A stretch of 64,000 nt of DNA from Clostridia bacterium (GCA_045545055.1 JAZQAB010000011.1:2594-66593); one strand, 5' to 3'; shown: positions 13,964 through 29,988, counted from the first letter of the stretch. Numbers and translations: made by a program. The notes: generated by a model not told the origin, from the letters alone.

Positions 13964-14036
13964 TAATTTAATCGCGAGCTATCAATTATGAATTTAGTCA
14001 GAACGCGACATGGGTGAAGCGGCACGCTTCTTATTT
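13964..14036 (+). repeat. structured intergenic repeat element, copy A (subtype 2)
   Basis: Sequence is aatcgcgag..tttagtcagaacgcgacatgggtg followed by the gaagcg-gca-cgcttc hairpin and ttattt. The P1 stem is tcgcG/Cgcga. The hairpin (14016-14030) directly abuts the stop codon (14031-14033) of the convergent minus-strand gene. Confidence 0.7.
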
Positions 14037-14657
14037 ATAATTTTTAACCAATTCTTTATATTGCTTATTATATTTCATTTTATATCCTAAAATAAGTTCA
14101 GGGGAGAATTTTTCTCTGTTTTGTTCAACAAGCTCTTGAGCGAGCTTCTTTGAAATATTCAAAGAAAATTTTTTGCCGTGTGCTGTACAGAAAATCATGT
14201 TTTTATTTGTGGTTGTAGCACCGGTGCCGGTATCATGGGTAGTGGTTTTTCTTAAGTAAATCCAAAGAATTTCCTTATAGGAAAATACGCAAAATGGACT
14301 TGAAACGGAAAAGAATTTGTCTCCGCAGATAACTTTTCTCATTTTGCCAATGGTTTGACCTTTATCTAAATCATCTGAAACTTCATTAATTGAAATCCCC
14401 GAATCTTCAAGGATTTCAACACATTTTAAAATGTTTCGTCTGAATCCGAAATATACAACAACGCTGACAATTAACAAAAGTCCCGAAGCACCAAGTAAAG
14501 CAGTTGTGAGGTTAGACGTTATCGCAGCATTTAGTAAAAAAGAGACAACTAATAAAATCACGGATATAATTGTTATGTTTTTCCAAATGTTTGCCGACTT
14601 TACCTTAGACTCAATTTTTTTCTTCATAAAAGCACCCCTTAAGAATAAATTGAACAC
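14031..14657 (-). CDS. hypothetical membrane protein (2 TM + cytoplasmic PH-like domain)
   Basis: The N-terminus has two hydrophobic segments. The probable start is the second Met (MKKKIESK). There is no recognisable catalytic motif. Confidence 0.5.
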   Translation of the reverse strand: MFNLFLRGAFMKKKIESKVKSANIWKNITIISVILLVVSFLLNAAITSNLTTALLGASGLLLIVSVVVYFGFRRNILKCVEILEDSGISINEVSDDLDKGQTIGKMRKVICGDKFFSVSSPFCVFSYKEILWIYLRKTTTHDTGTGATTTNKNMIFCTAHGKKFSLNISKKLAQELVEQNREKFSPELILGYKMKYNKQYKELVKNYK

Positions 14658-14743
14658 ATTATATCATATATTTGGTGAAAATGTCAATAAATGGCAGTTA
14701 AAAAATGACAGATTTTATATTCAGAGATTTTTTCCTATTTCTA

Positions 14744-14772
14744 TTGACAACATATATTTTCCATGCTATACT
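14744..14772 (+). promoter_or_regulatory. sigma-A-type promoter of the GntR-ABC operon
   Basis: TTGACA (14744-14749), 17-nt spacer, then TATACT (14767-14772). Confidence 0.5.
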
Positions 14773-14799
14773 AACTGTATTAGTACGAGTAATACAGTT
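14773..14799 (+). promoter_or_regulatory. putative GntR (YtrA-type) operator palindrome
   Basis: AACTGTATTA-gtacgag-TAATACAGTT is a perfect 10-bp inverted repeat. It lies immediately downstream of the -10 and overlaps the transcription start of the regulator's own gene. Confidence 0.35.
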
Positions 14800-14813
14800 A
14801 AGGAGGTGAATCA

Positions 14814-15191
14814 ATGATAAGCTTAGATTATAAGGACGGAAGAACTCTTCACGAACAGATTGAGCATGGCTTTCGTGAATTAATAATCGGCACAGTACTG
14901 AAAGCTCACGAGCAGCTTCCATCGGTGAGGGAGCTTTCCATTTCTCTTACAGTAAATCCCAATACAGTGCAAAAAGCGTATAAAGAGCTTGAAACAGCAG
15001 GGTATATCTACAGTGTTAAGGGAAAAGGAAACTTTGTAGCACCTCAGTTCCAGGCTAAGGACGAGAAAAGAATAGCGGGGCTTTATGATGAGATTACATC
15101 GGCTGTCAAGGAGCTTATGTATCTGGGTGAAACAAAAGAAGAAATAAACAGTCTTATAAACAATATTTATTCAGAAAGGGAGGAAGGATAA
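14814..15191 (+). CDS. GntR family transcriptional regulator (YtrA subfamily)
   Basis: GntR winged HTH (LPSVRELSISLTVNPNTVQKAYKELETAGYIYSVKGKGNFV). The short effector domain and the following ABC genes fit the YtrA architecture. Confidence 0.8.
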   Translation: MISLDYKDGRTLHEQIEHGFRELIIGTVLKAHEQLPSVRELSISLTVNPNTVQKAYKELETAGYIYSVKGKGNFVAPQFQAKDEKRIAGLYDEITSAVKELMYLGETKEEINSLINNIYSEREEG

Positions 15192-16090
15192 TGATTCAGG
15201 TGTCCTCGGTAACAAAATACTTTGATAATTTTAAAGTGCTTGACGATTTTTCTCTTGATGTGAAAAAGGGTACTATATATGGCTTGATAGGACCCAACGG
15301 AGCAGGTAAAACCACCGTGATAAATCATATTAACGGCGTTTTGAAGCCCGATTGCGGCAATATTTACATAGATGGTGTAAGAGTTTATGAAAATGAGCAA
15401 ATAAAGGAAAGAGTGCTGAATATTTCCGATGACTGGTTTTATTACAGTACGTATACAATTAAGCAAATGGCACGCTTCTATGCGGATATTTATAAAAATT
15501 TCAGCTTTGAGCGTTATAATGCAATAGGCGAAATCTTTAAAATCAATGAAAAAAGGCAGATAAGGAAGCTGTCTAAGGGTATGAAAAAGCAGGTGGCATT
15601 TTGGCTTACTCTTTCTGCAATGCCCGATGTCCTCATTTTGGACGAGCCGCTTGACGGACTTGACCCTGTTATGAGAAAGCAGGTTCTTAATCTTGTTATT
15701 GCAGATGTAAGTGACCGTGATTTAACGGTGCTGGTATCCTCGCACAATCTTCGTGAGCTTGAAGATATATGTGATTGGGTAGGAATTATCCATAAGGGTA
15801 AAATGATTGCACAAAAGCCGCTTGATGATTTAAAGGGCAGTGTTCATAAGTATCAGATGGTGCTTGATGAAGAAGCGGCACAAAGGCTTTCGGATTCGGG
15901 CGAGGTGCTGCATATTTCAAGAACGGGCTCGGTATACAGTGTAATTATAAGGGGCGATGCACAGCTCACCTATGACAAAATGAAAGAGCTTTCACCTCTT
16001 TTGTGTGAGAGAATCAGCCTTACACTGGAAGAAGTTTTCATTTATGAGTTGGGAGGTCTGGGATATGATTTCAAAAACATTATTTTTTAA
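15191..16090 (+). CDS. ABC transporter ATP-binding protein
   Basis: Walker A is GPNGAGKTT. The signature is LSKGMKKQ. Walker B is LILDEP. The start overlaps the GntR stop (ATGA). Confidence 0.85.
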   Translation: MIQVSSVTKYFDNFKVLDDFSLDVKKGTIYGLIGPNGAGKTTVINHINGVLKPDCGNIYIDGVRVYENEQIKERVLNISDDWFYYSTYTIKQMARFYADIYKNFSFERYNAIGEIFKINEKRQIRKLSKGMKKQVAFWLTLSAMPDVLILDEPLDGLDPVMRKQVLNLVIADVSDRDLTVLVSSHNLRELEDICDWVGIIHKGKMIAQKPLDDLKGSVHKYQMVLDEEAAQRLSDSGEVLHISRTGSVYSVIIRGDAQLTYDKMKELSPLLCERISLTLEEVFIYELGGLGYDFKNIIF

Positions 16091-28613: not shown

Positions 28614-28614
28614 C

Positions 28615-28692
28615 AAAAAGAAGCGTGCCGCTTCACCCATTTCGCGTCCCAACTAAATTTCAAGCGAAAATATGTTGCTCGCGATTAAATAC
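28615..28692 (-). repeat. structured intergenic repeat element, copy C (subtype 2, minus orientation)
   Basis: On the minus strand it reads tatttaatcgcgagc..tttagttgggacgcgaaatgggtg followed by the gaagcg-gca-cgcttc hairpin and ttttt. The hairpin (28620-28634) lies 6 nt from the stop (28611-28613) of the convergent plus-strand gene. Confidence 0.7.
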
Positions 28693-28710
28693 GCAAGTTT
28701 CTATACTGTA

Positions 28711-28758
28711 AAAAAGACTGTAGATGTAAAAACGAGTTTTTTACACCTACAGTCTTTT
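28711..28758 (+). terminator. hairpin + T-run between repeat copies C and D
   Basis: aaaagactgtagatgtaaaaa / tttttacacctacagtctttt is a long imperfect palindrome followed by TTTTTT. Confidence 0.6.
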
Positions 28759-28853
28759 TTGCAGTATCGGAAATTGAGTAAATTTAATTCGCATGAAACT
28801 GTGTACGTGCAGTGTTCGGGTGCGACATGGGTGAAGCGGCACGCTTCTTTTTT
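28759..28853 (+). repeat. structured intergenic repeat element, copy D (subtype 1)
   Basis: Sequence is ttgcagtatcggaaattgagtaaatttaattcgcatgaaactgtgtacgtgcagtgttcgggtgcgacatgggtg followed by the gaagcg-gca-cgcttc hairpin and TTTTTT. The T-run overlaps the stop codon (28852-28854) of the convergent hydE-like gene. Confidence 0.75.
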
Positions 28854-29928
28854 ATACATTTCTTTTTACATTGCCTACAGCCGTTACTACTCTGTAGCCG
28901 GCATTTTCCACTCTTTTTTCAAGGAGAGCTCGGCTTTGAGCGGCTTCCTCACCGGTGGAAATTTTATTTTCATACAAATCATACAGCTTTCTGTAGCTTT
29001 GGGGAGAGAGATTGGGCATTACAACGTTTGCTCCTGCACGAAGCCCCATTTCACGCCCCTCGGTATGGAGTGTACCCAATGCCGTGGTGGAGGGAATAAG
29101 AGCATAGGGGAACATATGGCGGAGAATTGCAATCAGCCTCACGGTCATTTCCACGCTTCCGCTTTCAAATTCTGCAAACGGAGTTTCCTTATGAACAATA
29201 TATGGTCCTATTCCAATCATATCGGGCTGTAATTCGTGCAAAAATTCCAAATCGGAAATTATATTATCAATAGTCTGAAAAGGAGAGCCAACCATAAAAC
29301 CGCTTCCTACCTGATAACCGATTTTTTTTAGGTCATAAAGACAGCGTTTGCGTTCCTCAAGGCTCATACACTCAGGGTGGAGCTTATTATAATGCTCACT
29401 TTCGGCAGTTTCATGCCTGAGGAGAAATCTGTTTGCACCTGCATTAAAATAGGCAAGATAGCTCTCATAACTCCTTTCACCGATAGAAAGCGTAATGGCA
29501 CAGTCGGGAAATTCCTCTCGGATAGCTCCCACAATGTCACATATTCTTTCATCTGTAAAATAAGGGTCATCACCGCCCTGCAGAACAAAGGTGCGAAAAC
29601 CCAGCGTGTAGCCTTCACGGCAGCAGGCCATTATTTGCTCTTTGCTAAGACGGTAACGCTGTGCTTTTTTATTATCACAGCGTATTCCGCAATAGTAGCA
29701 GTTATTTTTGCAGTAGTTTGTAAATTCAATAAGCCCTCTTATATATACATCTTTCCCATAAACTGCCTGTCTTATTTCATCAGATGACTTAATAAGAGCA
29801 CTGTCATATTTATCGGTGGTAAGGAGAGTGCGGAATTCATCTCTTGAAAGTATTTTGTTTTCACGAAGCTTAAATATTAAATCCGTCATAATTTTTCTCC
29901 CAAAAATTTTTATCGTATAAGAAATCAC
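28852..29928 (-). CDS. hydE: [FeFe]-hydrogenase maturase HydE-like radical SAM protein
   Basis: CxxxCxxC cluster motif (CKNNCYYCGIRC). The N-terminal region is HydE/BioB-like and the length is about 350 aa. The true start may be the internal Met (MTDLIFKL). Confidence 0.65.
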   Translation of the reverse strand: MISYTIKIFGRKIMTDLIFKLRENKILSRDEFRTLLTTDKYDSALIKSSDEIRQAVYGKDVYIRGLIEFTNYCKNNCYYCGIRCDNKKAQRYRLSKEQIMACCREGYTLGFRTFVLQGGDDPYFTDERICDIVGAIREEFPDCAITLSIGERSYESYLAYFNAGANRFLLRHETAESEHYNKLHPECMSLEERKRCLYDLKKIGYQVGSGFMVGSPFQTIDNIISDLEFLHELQPDMIGIGPYIVHKETPFAEFESGSVEMTVRLIAILRHMFPYALIPSTTALGTLHTEGREMGLRAGANVVMPNLSPQSYRKLYDLYENKISTGEEAAQSRALLEKRVENAGYRVVTAVGNVKRNV

Positions 29929-29930
29929 GA

Positions 29931-29988
29931 CGCATGAAACTATGTTTGAACAAAGTCAGAATGCGACATGGGTGCAGGCTCAGCCTGC
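29931..29988 (+). repeat. structured intergenic repeat element, copy E (divergent/short)
   Basis: Sequence is cgcatgaaactatgtttgaacaaagtcagaatgcgacatgggtg followed by a gcaggc-tca-gcctgc hairpin. The terminal hairpin is fully compensatory and P1 is cgcat/atgcg. The hairpin abuts the ADH stop (29989-29991). Confidence 0.6.

Follow-up and report, generated by a model that had tools for sequence, protein, structure and literature searches.

Short intergenic repeats whose paired arms change together from copy to copy may be regulatory RNAs or structured mobile DNA. This question is raised by five such repeats, A to E, in a 64,000-nt stretch of Clostridia bacterium DNA (GCA_045545055.1, JAZQAB010000011.1:2594-66593; hereafter the window), for which an initial annotation had suggested a new sRNA or attenuator family or a structured MITE-like repeat. 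We asked which kind of element they are, using the window and related genomes.

Five copies in the window and a wider family

A covariance model built from the five copies recovered exactly these five in the 64 kb, on the strands first annotated, with scores of 77–99 bits (E 1e-20 to 4e-27) against this model of their own; elsewhere in the 64 kb it detected no further copy, the next match (E 0.08) being unrelated by eye. The 19-mer GGGTGAAGCGGCACGCTTC occurred four times exactly in the window and a gapped family pattern also matched four times, with 0 expected for each (from shuffles for the 19-mer). All five copies begin further 5' than originally delimited, and the revised limits are given in Table 1. 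The T-run and box GTAT(A/C)nRAA noted upstream of B and D are indeed there but are not restricted to them, as all five copies, E included, share this sequence. The similar hairpins upstream of B and D proved to be the terminators of the host genes, which also precede A and C.

Table 1. Copies A–E and the host terminators beside them, in window coordinates.
Feature	Position	Strand	Covariance model (bits)	Parts	Flanking sequence
Host terminator of DUF5067 gene	13900..13946	+		20-bp hairpin + TTTCTTTA	
Copy A, subtype I	13947..14030	+	94.7	box 13949-13964; P1 arms 13972-13976 / 14004-14008; GGGTG 14012-14016; terminal hairpin 14016-14030	TTA 13944-13946 and 14031-14033 (latter, stop codon of convergent DUF6709 gene)
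Host terminator of M20 peptidase gene	23375..23427	+		hairpin + T6 + G	
Copy B, subtype II	23428..23513	+	96.6	box 23430-23445; P1 23455-23459 / 23487-23491; GGGTG 23495-23499; terminal hairpin 23499-23513	TTTTTTG 23421-23427 and 23514-23520
Copy C, subtype I	28620..28708	-	84.2	terminal hairpin 28620-28634; box 28691-28706	3' end reaches stop codon of oadA-like gene (28611-28613)
Bidirectional host terminator	28710..28760	.		A6, 17-bp hairpin, T6	
Copy D, subtype II	28762..28847	+	98.6	box 28764-28779; P1 28789-28793 / 28821-28825; GGGTG 28829-28833; terminal hairpin 28833-28847	T6A 28848-28854, containing hydE stop codon (opposite strand)
Copy E, subtype II body with GCAGGCTCAGCCTGC hairpin	29913..29988	+	77	box 29915-29929; P1 29931-29935 / 29961-29965; GGGTG 29970-29974; hairpin 29974-29988	TTA 29910-29912 and 29989-29991 (latter, Fe-ADH stop codon)

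The covariance-model search of relatives showed that the family extends well beyond the window, with at least 135 copies spread over 98 sequence blocks of 24 uncultured Clostridia/Oscillospiraceae genomes (8-kb blocks around family matches, 732 kb in all) and at least 38 copies in the single MAG JAZQAO01. Among the matches listed there were at least 109 loci, 97 of them genuine, from 24 MAG species. The elements are ~85–95 nt long, some are decaying (L054, L003, L114), and their host range is a clade of uncultured gut Clostridia (Oscillospirales-like); the viral contigs, phages and plasmids searched gave no family match. Consistent with the initial annotation, which recognised no known RNA family, Rfam 15 gave no gathering-score match across the whole 64-kb window and, at E<=10 in region 28550–30050, nothing overlapping any copy; a subtype III copy from L026 had no Rfam match either. 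This structured repeat family is previously undescribed and has no Rfam counterpart.

Architecture and conserved base pairing

Each element consists of a 5' box CY-GTATAGGAAWTTGCG, an A/T-rich linker (10 nt, lacking in copy E), an imperfect P1-P2 hairpin of ~40 nt, GGGTG, and a terminal 6-bp GC hairpin (15 nt), which is followed by T6 in most family copies. The base of P1-P2 is conserved (CGCR/YGCG) and its top is variable; in the window, the P1 changes CGCA/TGCG versus CGCG/CGCG are as first described. The terminal hairpin of copy E is compensatory, as had been noted, but it is no one-off change: family-wide, there are essentially two compensatory versions of this hairpin, of which E carries one, and an intermediate form, GCAGCGGCACGCTGC, was also found. 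The most conserved stretch is the single-stranded GCGAMNNGGGTG that separates the hairpins. The element begins with CYGTATAGGAA and ends in GGGTG plus hairpin; there are no terminal inverted repeats, the 5' end CYGTATAGGAAWTTGCG not being complementary to the 3' GCGAMNNGGGTG plus GC hairpin.

Base pairing is conserved in the family. In the wider alignment compensatory pairing was retained, with 85% of the cells paired versus 28–45% when the partners were slid, and 313 double-sided changes versus 15–36 in the slid controls. P2 covaried within subtype I as well (AU 16, GC 10, in a structure-blind MAFFT alignment). G-U pairs exceeded A-C (113 versus 66), a bias toward pairing of the sense strand. 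The stability of single copies was unremarkable, with a whole-element folding z of ~0; the P1-P2 hairpin had a mean z of -1.2 and a mean dG of -8.8 kcal/mol. The covariation had originally been read as selection on RNA rather than on DNA, which does not follow, because single-stranded DNA hairpins of a mobile element would covary likewise.

The elements have no coding capacity. Copies B and D do contain a 13-codon ATG...TGA frame, for example MKLC(S/T)C.VRVR(R/H)G, whose stop overlaps the terminator and in which the Arg codons AGA/CGG alternate at one aligned position, so that a tiny peptide gene might be imagined. That frame, however, is present in only 6 of 122 distinct copies; 42 of the 122 have no stop (TGC or TGT) and 71 no in-frame ATG, there is no Shine-Dalgarno sequence, and the differences between B and D are all non-synonymous. 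We regard a peptide gene as next to impossible.

Insertion next to intrinsic terminators

The copies share one orientation relative to a T-tract, which they immediately follow on its 3' side and which usually belongs to a host terminator. A stable hairpin immediately precedes 71% of solitary copies versus 15% of the remaining T6-8 runs at these loci. Aligned junctions give the logo T6-R-C-Y-GTATAGGAA on the upstream side and hairpin-T6-R on the downstream side. The bases that follow the two flanking T-runs agree (Fisher p = 1.3e-4), significantly so in both subtype groups taken separately, and imperfect T-runs often match across the element. In the window, the DUF5067 terminator is the insertion target of copy A and the M20 peptidase terminator that of copy B. 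The bidirectional terminator, which separates the convergent oadA-like and hydE genes, has both of its T-tract sides filled, one by C (minus strand), the other by D (plus strand). Copy E sits antisense within the Fe-ADH-hydE operon spacer. Enrichment at terminators could partly reflect the survival of harmless insertions rather than targeting.

This context bears on a DNA-level regulatory or architectural module, an array for host-protein binding (the box and the CGCR-N27-YGCG palindrome) spread by recombination. The box is conserved as double-stranded sequence, and also occurs alone as an inverted pair and in a promoter, which speaks for such a module; but the hairpin top covaries without conserved sequence, and therefore recognition of structure rather than of sequence is favoured. 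Strict orientation to T-tracts and flanking direct repeats would be unexpected for operator sites, and the flanking genes are ordinary chromosomal neighbours with no common functional theme. Such a module thus appears improbable.

The position of the copies relative to genes was also informative. Upstream ORFs are co-oriented with the copy in 78 of 94 cases, and downstream ORFs are convergent in 52 of 89, their stop codon lying ~2 nt from the element end; the 37 of 89 that are co-oriented have a median distance of 193 nt. In the window, convergent genes face copies A, C, D and E. This arrangement argues against a cis-acting 5' leader, attenuator or riboswitch for the downstream gene, even though the hairpin-then-terminator layout is superficially attenuator-like and copy B is located upstream of a carboxyltransferase operon. 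Copy B was considered as an attenuator and rejected, as the operon's own promoter (TTGAAA-17-TATAAT) comes after it and is conserved in relatives without B. There is no conserved alternative antiterminator pairing, nor an Rfam match. The attenuator role originally suggested is refuted by context, since most copies come after a gene with its terminator and have a convergent gene ahead, and we give a leader function hardly any credence. Selfish DNA, and not a riboswitch, is the most likely identity of the family.

Presence and absence among relatives

Comparison with relatives revealed insertion polymorphism. At the E site, L110 and L113 have no copy, whereas the window and L114, L115 and L116 (relatives at 92–96% amino-acid identity) do; the filled site reads TTA-element-TTA, and the empty one has TTA once. 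L117 and L118 lack a copy at the B site, and L117 has a single T7G where the window has TTTTTTG on both sides of B. E and B are the only two sites with clear empty counterparts. Copies of different subtypes occupy opposite sides of an orthologous bidirectional terminator in L065 and L083, and relatives differ in which subtype they carry at the 3' end of hydE, or have none there. One tandem array has one copy in L070 and two in L089, and the arrays in L022, L041 and L056 are of mixed subtypes. At E the flanking duplication measures 3 nt and at B it seems to measure 7 nt; the flanks of C and D are mismatched. Because the duplication length is inconsistent, a classical fixed-length target-site duplication is not established.

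No transposase, reverse transcriptase or recombinase recurred in the 8-kb blocks or the window, and no Y1_Tnp gene was present in the 8-kb blocks around matches. The fetched blocks contained no longer element with both ends of the family, and no cognate autonomous IS was found in the 732 kb of blocks or the window, in an assembly type (MAGs) that breaks at IS elements. Mobilisation would be in trans.

An explanation compatible with such mobility is that the repeats are multi-copy genes for trans-acting sRNAs, each an independent transcription unit with its promoter in the T-run and box region and an RNA of ~65–90 nt, in which a 5' hairpin would precede a single-stranded CAUGGGUG seed and the intrinsic terminator; the family can then be an sRNA-carrying repeat. 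The terminator-like 3' hairpin with T6 in four of the five window copies, the strong conservation of GCGAMNNGGGTG, the excess of G-U over A-C, and the use of the box hexamer TTGCGT as a -35 element in L007 and L080 are all in its favour. But a sigma-70-type scan detected no sigma-70-like promoter in any window copy, the would-be -10 position is not conserved between subtypes, the A/T linker is missing in E, and copies A and E have no T-tract after the terminal hairpin. Dozens of copies per genome, decaying copies and insertion polymorphism are also atypical of sRNA genes. We therefore consider this explanation unlikely, though worth keeping in mind.

Comparison with known repeats and mobile elements

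By definition, MITEs carry terminal inverted repeats that match an IS. Like Correia, RUP, BOX and bcr1, the Clostridia family is small, non-coding and of high copy number, has short flanking direct repeats and a predicted RNA structure, and occasionally affects the genes beside it (PMC3049150). The suggestion of a structured MITE-like repeat is thus favoured by copy number, polymorphism, direct repeats and strict context, but the family is not a strict MITE, because it has no terminal inverted repeats.

In PATEs of IS200/IS605 and in REP/RAYT systems, the left- and right-end hairpins are alike and recognised by a Y1 HUH transposase, and insertion occurs 3' of a fixed tetra- or pentanucleotide without duplication. 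The Clostridia family resembles them in several ways: its ends are asymmetric and lack inverted terminal repeats, the conserved hairpins near them are presumably read on one strand of the DNA, insertion has a set orientation 3' of a short motif, and its many copies lie outside genes, after them, with no transposase nearby. Its hairpins, in contrast, are unrelated to each other (P1-P2 of ~40 nt versus 15 nt for the terminal one), and a T-rich direct repeat flanks its copies, the TTR motif recurring at the other end.

The attC sites are imperfect hairpins recognised by structure in single-stranded DNA, and they are also targets of group IIC introns through their resemblance to terminators. They share with the family a conserved stem base and variable top. 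The family, however, has CGCR/YGCG at the stem base and no RYYYAAC/GTTRRRY cores, cassette array or nearby integrase, and its units sit at terminators across the chromosome.

Group IIC introns are ribozymes of at least 600 nt, usually with an RT ORF, with GUGYG...AY ends and domains I–VI. The family differs in its ~90 nt, flanking direct repeats and absence of an ORF, and the Rfam search of the window copies gave no match to Intron_gpII, the ribozyme domains being absent. These introns insert directly downstream of a terminator motif (an inverted repeat plus Ts) on the transcribed strand (PMC1702495), and the family shares their target choice and orientation.

The pneumococcal SPRITE has one 18-bp duplex, a long U-rich tract, AAAA/TTTT termini, a GC content of 28% and no established target-site duplication (PMC3049150). 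SPRITE and the Clostridia family have in common a length of ~100 nt, a non-coding interspersed character, a terminator-like stem with a U-rich tract, strong enrichment near the 3' ends of genes and between convergent genes, T/A-rich termini, the absence of a matching IS and a narrow clade of hosts (PMC3049150). Unlike SPRITE, the Clostridia family combines a conserved 5' box with two separate hairpins and GGGTG, its terminator stem is short (6 bp), and it inserts precisely and in fixed orientation by a pre-existing terminator T-tract, with empty sites demonstrated. It is set apart from SPRITE by description, and sequence relatedness is not expected.

A model for terminator-targeted insertion

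Taken together, we propose, with a probability of about two-thirds, that the family consists of ~85–95-nt non-autonomous mobile repeats that target terminators. The element would insert in a single orientation at the 3' border of a T-tract that precedes a purine, nearly always the U-tract of an intrinsic terminator, and would leave the end of the T-tract duplicated (TTR up to TTTTTTR), as direct repeats on its two flanks, so that the host terminator stays intact upstream. The GC hairpin of the element, now placed before Ts, probably has terminator activity and would form a second terminator, again open to insertion; mixed-subtype tandem arrays would arise because each inserted element offers this hairpin plus Ts.

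Recognition of the two dissimilar ends most likely relies on the 5' box, the P1 base, GGGTG and the terminal hairpin. A putative trans-acting enzyme would read these parts on the sense strand in single-stranded form, presumably as single-stranded DNA, with an RNA intermediate as the alternative; the variable yet pairing hairpin top would have a structural role only. The conserved single-stranded GCGAMNNGGGTG, the intact terminator and the G-U excess would also fit a functional transcript.

More tentatively, the family may represent a new class of prokaryotic non-autonomous mobile element, one homing to intrinsic terminators, whose two structured ends are dissimilar and lack inverted terminal repeats, and which is moved by a structure-specific single-stranded DNA enzyme or via the terminated transcript. 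The 3' end of such an element mimics its target (hairpin plus T-tract), and therefore each insertion would make the next target. If true, mobility by the transcript route would be a bacterial analogue of a SINE.

The box and neighbouring genes

The box was also found alone, as a perfect inverted pair. In the two relatives in which TTGCGT acts as a -35 element, a perfect TGnTATAAT lies 17 nt downstream. Effects on neighbouring genes comprised this donated -35 element and an altered C-terminus of HydE.

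The window copies and their family

All five copies (A to E) proposed in the initial annotation were recovered at their places in the window. The 19-mer GGGTGAAGCGGCACGCTTC occurs there exactly four times, against 0 expected from shuffles, and the gapped family pattern gave four matches where none is expected. R1, a covariance model based on these copies, scored them at 77–99 bits, and a search of the 64 kb with R1 for a sixth copy found none. The best sub-threshold matches were weak and unrelated in sequence (see table). The copies had been drawn too short at their 5' starts, since each reaches further 5'. 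The upstream box that had been noted for B and D, GTAT(A/C)nRAA(A/T)T... with a T-run 5' of it, is indeed shared by these two, yet it is common to all five, E included.

The sequence of the window is ordinary for a Clostridia chromosome, and its ORFs are housekeeping genes, including those for a BspA-type LRR protein, an ABC transporter, an M20 peptidase, hydE, an Fe-alcohol dehydrogenase (Fe-ADH), groEL, ftsW and a PBP, together with a Na+-translocating decarboxylase operon (carboxyltransferase, gamma, biotin carrier, beta and alpha subunits). Genes for a transposase, a recombinase or a reverse transcriptase are absent from the window. The five copies all lie inside 16 kb (13964-29988), and the remaining 48 kb carry no copy despite terminator-like sites; such local clustering, also seen at the loci L056 and L022 of relatives, may come from preferred reinsertion nearby.

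A degenerate-pattern scan over 185,579 species genomes gave at least 109 loci, 12 of which were chance matches in GC-rich taxa. The remaining 97, among the matches listed, belong to 24 uncultured Clostridia/Oscillospiraceae MAGs, and several of these carry names that refer to sheep, goat, yak or roe-deer gut samples. A covariance-model search of relatives, as the initial annotation had recommended, yielded abundant further copies: R1 detected at least 135 in the matched blocks plus the window, with at least 38 in JAZQAO01 and at least about 18–19 each in SVJK01 and JAZQJX01 (among the matches listed). Six pattern matches in viral contigs were all due to chance, and BLAST against phage and plasmid records found no copy.

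Among the matches listed, the family falls into three main subtypes (I, II and III) whose first-hairpin interiors are almost wholly different; A and C are of subtype I, B and D of subtype II. Common to the subtypes are the box, the CGCR/YGCG stem base and GCGAMNNGGGTG. The terminal hairpin is one of two, GAAGCGGCACGCTTC or GCAGGCTCAGCCTGC, across subtypes, with a rare intermediate, GCAGCGGCACGCTGC. Because both hairpins are used across the family, the "fully compensatory" change described for E, which is present, is not special to that copy but is the family-wide alternative. The description as a MITE-like repeat was apt for a small interspersed repeat but not for a classical MITE, as there are no inverted terminal repeats.

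Setting of the window copies and positions of other features (L-numbers, loci in relatives)
Feature	Position	Setting or remark
Copy A		3' of DUF5067 gene and its 20-bp terminator; touches stop codon of convergent gene
Copy B		3' of peptidase terminator; upstream of the decarboxylase operon's own TTGAAA-17-TATAAT promoter
Copies C (minus strand) and D		Either side of one bidirectional terminator between convergent oadA-like gene and hydE; each points away from the hairpin
Copy E		Fe-ADH–hydE spacer; antisense
Rejected R1 matches	window 62600-62682; window 48212-48290	
Rejected MIR1878 and mir-1010 matches	window 28696-28776	
AraC-family regulators	L009:3836-4699; L011:2367-3185; window 35780-36499, 44659-45579	Examples
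Decayed copy, hydE 3' end	L113:4064-4156; L114:1735-1813; L115:1852-1930	Compare window 28848-28889
oadB-oadA spacer	L118:5684-5975; window 27186-27206	292 nt in L118; 21 nt in window
Inverted box pair	window 52565-52613 (minus strand); L019:4170-4215; L026:5350-5392; L033, L036, L060, L076, L104	Window pair degenerate
~125-nt unit	L026:5393-5505; L019, L020, L033, L036, L076, L104	
Solitary box as -35	L007:2423-2470; L080:4100-4145	

Insertion sites

Among the matches listed, the upstream ORF is co-oriented with the copy in 78 of 94 cases, and the downstream ORF is convergent in 52 of 89, with its stop codon ~2 nt from the element end. The upstream junction reads T6 (87–96% T per position), R, C, Y, GTATAGGAA, and the downstream junction reads hairpin, T6, R (both among the matches listed). 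Immediately 5' of the upstream T-run stands a strong hairpin that differs from locus to locus and is the host terminator: under a strict criterion it precedes 79 of 111 solitary copies, whereas for the other T6-8 runs of these blocks the figure is 286 of 1944 (among the matches listed). This context, together with the absence of any leader-like placement in the window (0/5 copies), ruled out the attenuator that had been suggested initially.

The base after the T-run tends to be the same on both sides of a copy. In 73 informative solitary copies, the upstream and downstream bases were AA in 46, GG in 12, AG in 8 and GA in 7 (Fisher p = 1.3e-4), and the match was significant in each of both hairpin classes. 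Interrupted T-runs often carry the identical interruption on either side, for example at L022, L086, L012, L074, L047 and L018. The duplicated length varies, being 3 nt at E and A and apparently 7 nt at B; the flanking R is mismatched at C and D. Arrays of up to four adjacent copies with mixed subtypes (L022, L041, L056) are serial insertions behind the preceding copy's hairpin and T6, not simple duplications.

When 769 ORFs of the loci (among the matches listed) were clustered all against all, no transposase-like ORF recurred near copies; the only recurrent clusters were AraC regulators, SLH proteins, two-component systems, solute-binding proteins and similar. The AraC-family regulators were the commonest, in 12 of 97 element-bearing 8-kb blocks, which probably reflects their abundance in these genomes alone.

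Empty and filled sites in relatives

Relatives were reached via homologues of window proteins. Synteny around hydE is poorly kept, and L111 and L112 were uninformative. Site E is empty in L110 and L113, where the Fe-ADH stop codon TAA is followed by 18–21 nt and the hydE ATG (hydE-sense orientation); Fe-ADH and HydE there are 92% and 94–95% identical to those of the window. The site is filled in the window, L114, L115 and L116 by an antisense element placed exactly after the TAA. The flanks align at 8 of 10 positions (L114 aaaagaaatt-TTA, L110 aaaataactt-TTA), so that filled E reads TTA-[TC GTATAGG...GCCTGC]-TTA and empty E a single TTA. No hairpin is present at this target, and a T-rich TTR thus seems to be enough for insertion. 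Site B is empty in L117 (peptidase 77% identical), whose terminator T7-G runs straight into GTGTAAAA..., homologous to the sequence 3' of B; in the window, TTTTTTG stands on either flank of B. L118 also has an empty site B.

In the orthologous convergent-gene spacers L065 and L083, copies of differing subtype occupy opposite sides of the bidirectional terminator in opposite orientation. Two tandem copies are present in L089 where L070 has one, and in L054 a deletion of 21 nt, relative to L086, has removed the box. At the hydE 3' end, the window has D, of subtype II, L113–L115 have a decayed subtype-I-like copy, and L110 and L116 have none.

HydE has 353 aa in L113–L115 compared with 345 aa, its last residues being encoded by the antisense strand of the decayed copy. 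Downstream of hydE, the window, L110, L114 and L116 each have a different gene, with the synteny break exactly at the element site. The longer oadB-oadA spacer of L118 has the 22-nt direct repeat CTGAAAAATGCACAGACCATTC at either end and represents an insertion of a different kind from the element.

Base pairing and the nature of the folded strand

RNAalifold on the window copies reproduced the P1 and terminal-hairpin pairings of the initial annotation. Single-sequence folding energy of the whole element is unexceptional (z-score ~0); for the first hairpin, the minimum-energy fold is closed by P1 in 108 of 114 cases (mean dG -8.8 kcal/mol, mean z -1.2). In a model-guided alignment of 122 distinct copies (among the matches listed), standard pairs fill 85% of pair cells versus 28–45% with partners slid by 1–3 columns, and double-sided changes number 313 versus 15–36 in the slid controls, with all four helices contributing. 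Since such an alignment favours structure, the count was repeated on 38 subtype I copies aligned by MAFFT without regard to structure. There, P1 is invariant, whereas P2 varies with pairing kept in 77% of cells, showing AU (16) or GC (10) at one pair and CG, UA or UG at another. RNAalifold on the same alignment recovered P1 alone, and the explicit pair count told more. We conclude that the pairing is real. G-U pairs (113) exceed A-C pairs (66), which mildly favours folding of the sense strand.

Much of the counted covariation stems from amplified lineages and not from independent events. It fits RNA and single-stranded DNA alike, so the original argument from covariation to selection on RNA does not hold; covarying stems in the copies of a repeat are not in themselves evidence of a riboswitch or sRNA. 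An expressed sRNA function, which would be compatible with mobility, is in our judgement improbable. Rfam 15 bore out the statement that no recognised riboswitch or sRNA family is involved: neither the whole window at gathering score, nor 28550-30050 (the C-D-E region) at E<=10, nor a permissive scan of L026 gave a match to the copies. Permissive matches to the plant and insect microRNAs MIR1878 (E 0.001) and mir-1010 were false positives caused by the long A6-hairpin-T6 bidirectional terminator and the inverted boxes of C and D. A mini-ORF, MKLCxC...RG*, was rejected, as only 6 of 122 distinct copies have an ATG...TGA frame (among the matches listed). No sigma-70 promoter matched inside the copies. 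With alternative sigma-factor consensus sequences, or with TTGCGT or TTTACY as a -35, all judged by eye, the spacing is inconsistent across subtypes, and the would-be -10 region is unlike between subtypes and deleted in E.

Mode of spread

We favour, with a probability of roughly two in three, a non-autonomous element mobilised in trans. It would integrate at a T-tract plus purine in fixed orientation, leaving a T-tract end on either side. Its own two ends, both structured but unlike each other, would be recognised on the sense strand. Arrays would be self-propagating because the 3' end of the element resembles its target. The intermediate could be single-stranded DNA, handled by an HUH-type or structure-specific recombinase, or the predicted terminated transcript. 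LINE-like retroposition was weighed as an alternative; no 5'-truncated copy series was seen among the matches listed, which argues weakly against it. Among the same matches, no orphan 3' hairpin was found outside complete copies and no unit of greater length, such as an autonomous element, shares the 3' end; a group II intron was ruled out by size and the lack of an Rfam match.

To our knowledge, intrinsic terminators serve as safe harbours for a small set of elements, so far mainly group IIC introns. If mobilisation in trans is correct, the present family would be a well-defined further case: an element of minimal size (~90 nt) that bears clear structural signatures and has recently been active in abundant uncultured gut Clostridia. 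IS200/IS605-derived PATEs, REPs and integron attC sites are comparable in having asymmetric ends or hairpins that are read as structures, but the present family lacks at least one defining feature of each. Biologically, the pneumococcal SPRITE comes nearest: this interspersed repeat resembles a terminator and is enriched where convergent genes end, and neither a transposase nor a target duplication is known for it (PMC3049150). In target choice, the nearest are group IIC introns, which are reported to lie downstream of terminator motifs (PMC1702495). From these comparisons, the element is filed as a further variant within the small interspersed bacterial repeats; that it represents a genuinely new class of mobilisation is doubtful.

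The family offers a handle on the responsible enzyme through co-occurrence analysis. It accounts for tandem "terminator" strings and sRNA-like predictions otherwise mis-annotated in these MAGs, and its copies mark sites of rearrangement, of gene-end remodelling (the HydE C-terminus) and, apparently, of promoter donation.

Solitary boxes and neighbouring units

Orphan boxes are few and lead to no longer element. The 5' box alone also occurs as a near-perfect inverted pair, TTTTTTACTGTATAGGAAAC-TTCG-GTT(T)CCTATACAGTAAAAAA, that is, two element 5' ends face-to-face with no insert; aberrant insertion, snap-back synthesis or a recombination site are possible origins. In the SVJK01 and JAZQJX01 genomes, a recurring unit of ~125 nt stands 3' of the inverted pair. 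It comprises the perfect 24-bp palindrome TTGAAAAGCAAATTTGCTTTTCAA, GATAAT, and GC-rich hairpins with TTTTCTT, followed by a subtype III copy, and it had no Rfam match in the permissive scan of L026. Elsewhere, behind an element terminator, a solitary box offers TTGCGT as a -35, with a spacing of exactly 17 nt to the extended -10 TGATATAAT downstream; half a promoter can apparently be supplied by the repeat to a downstream gene.
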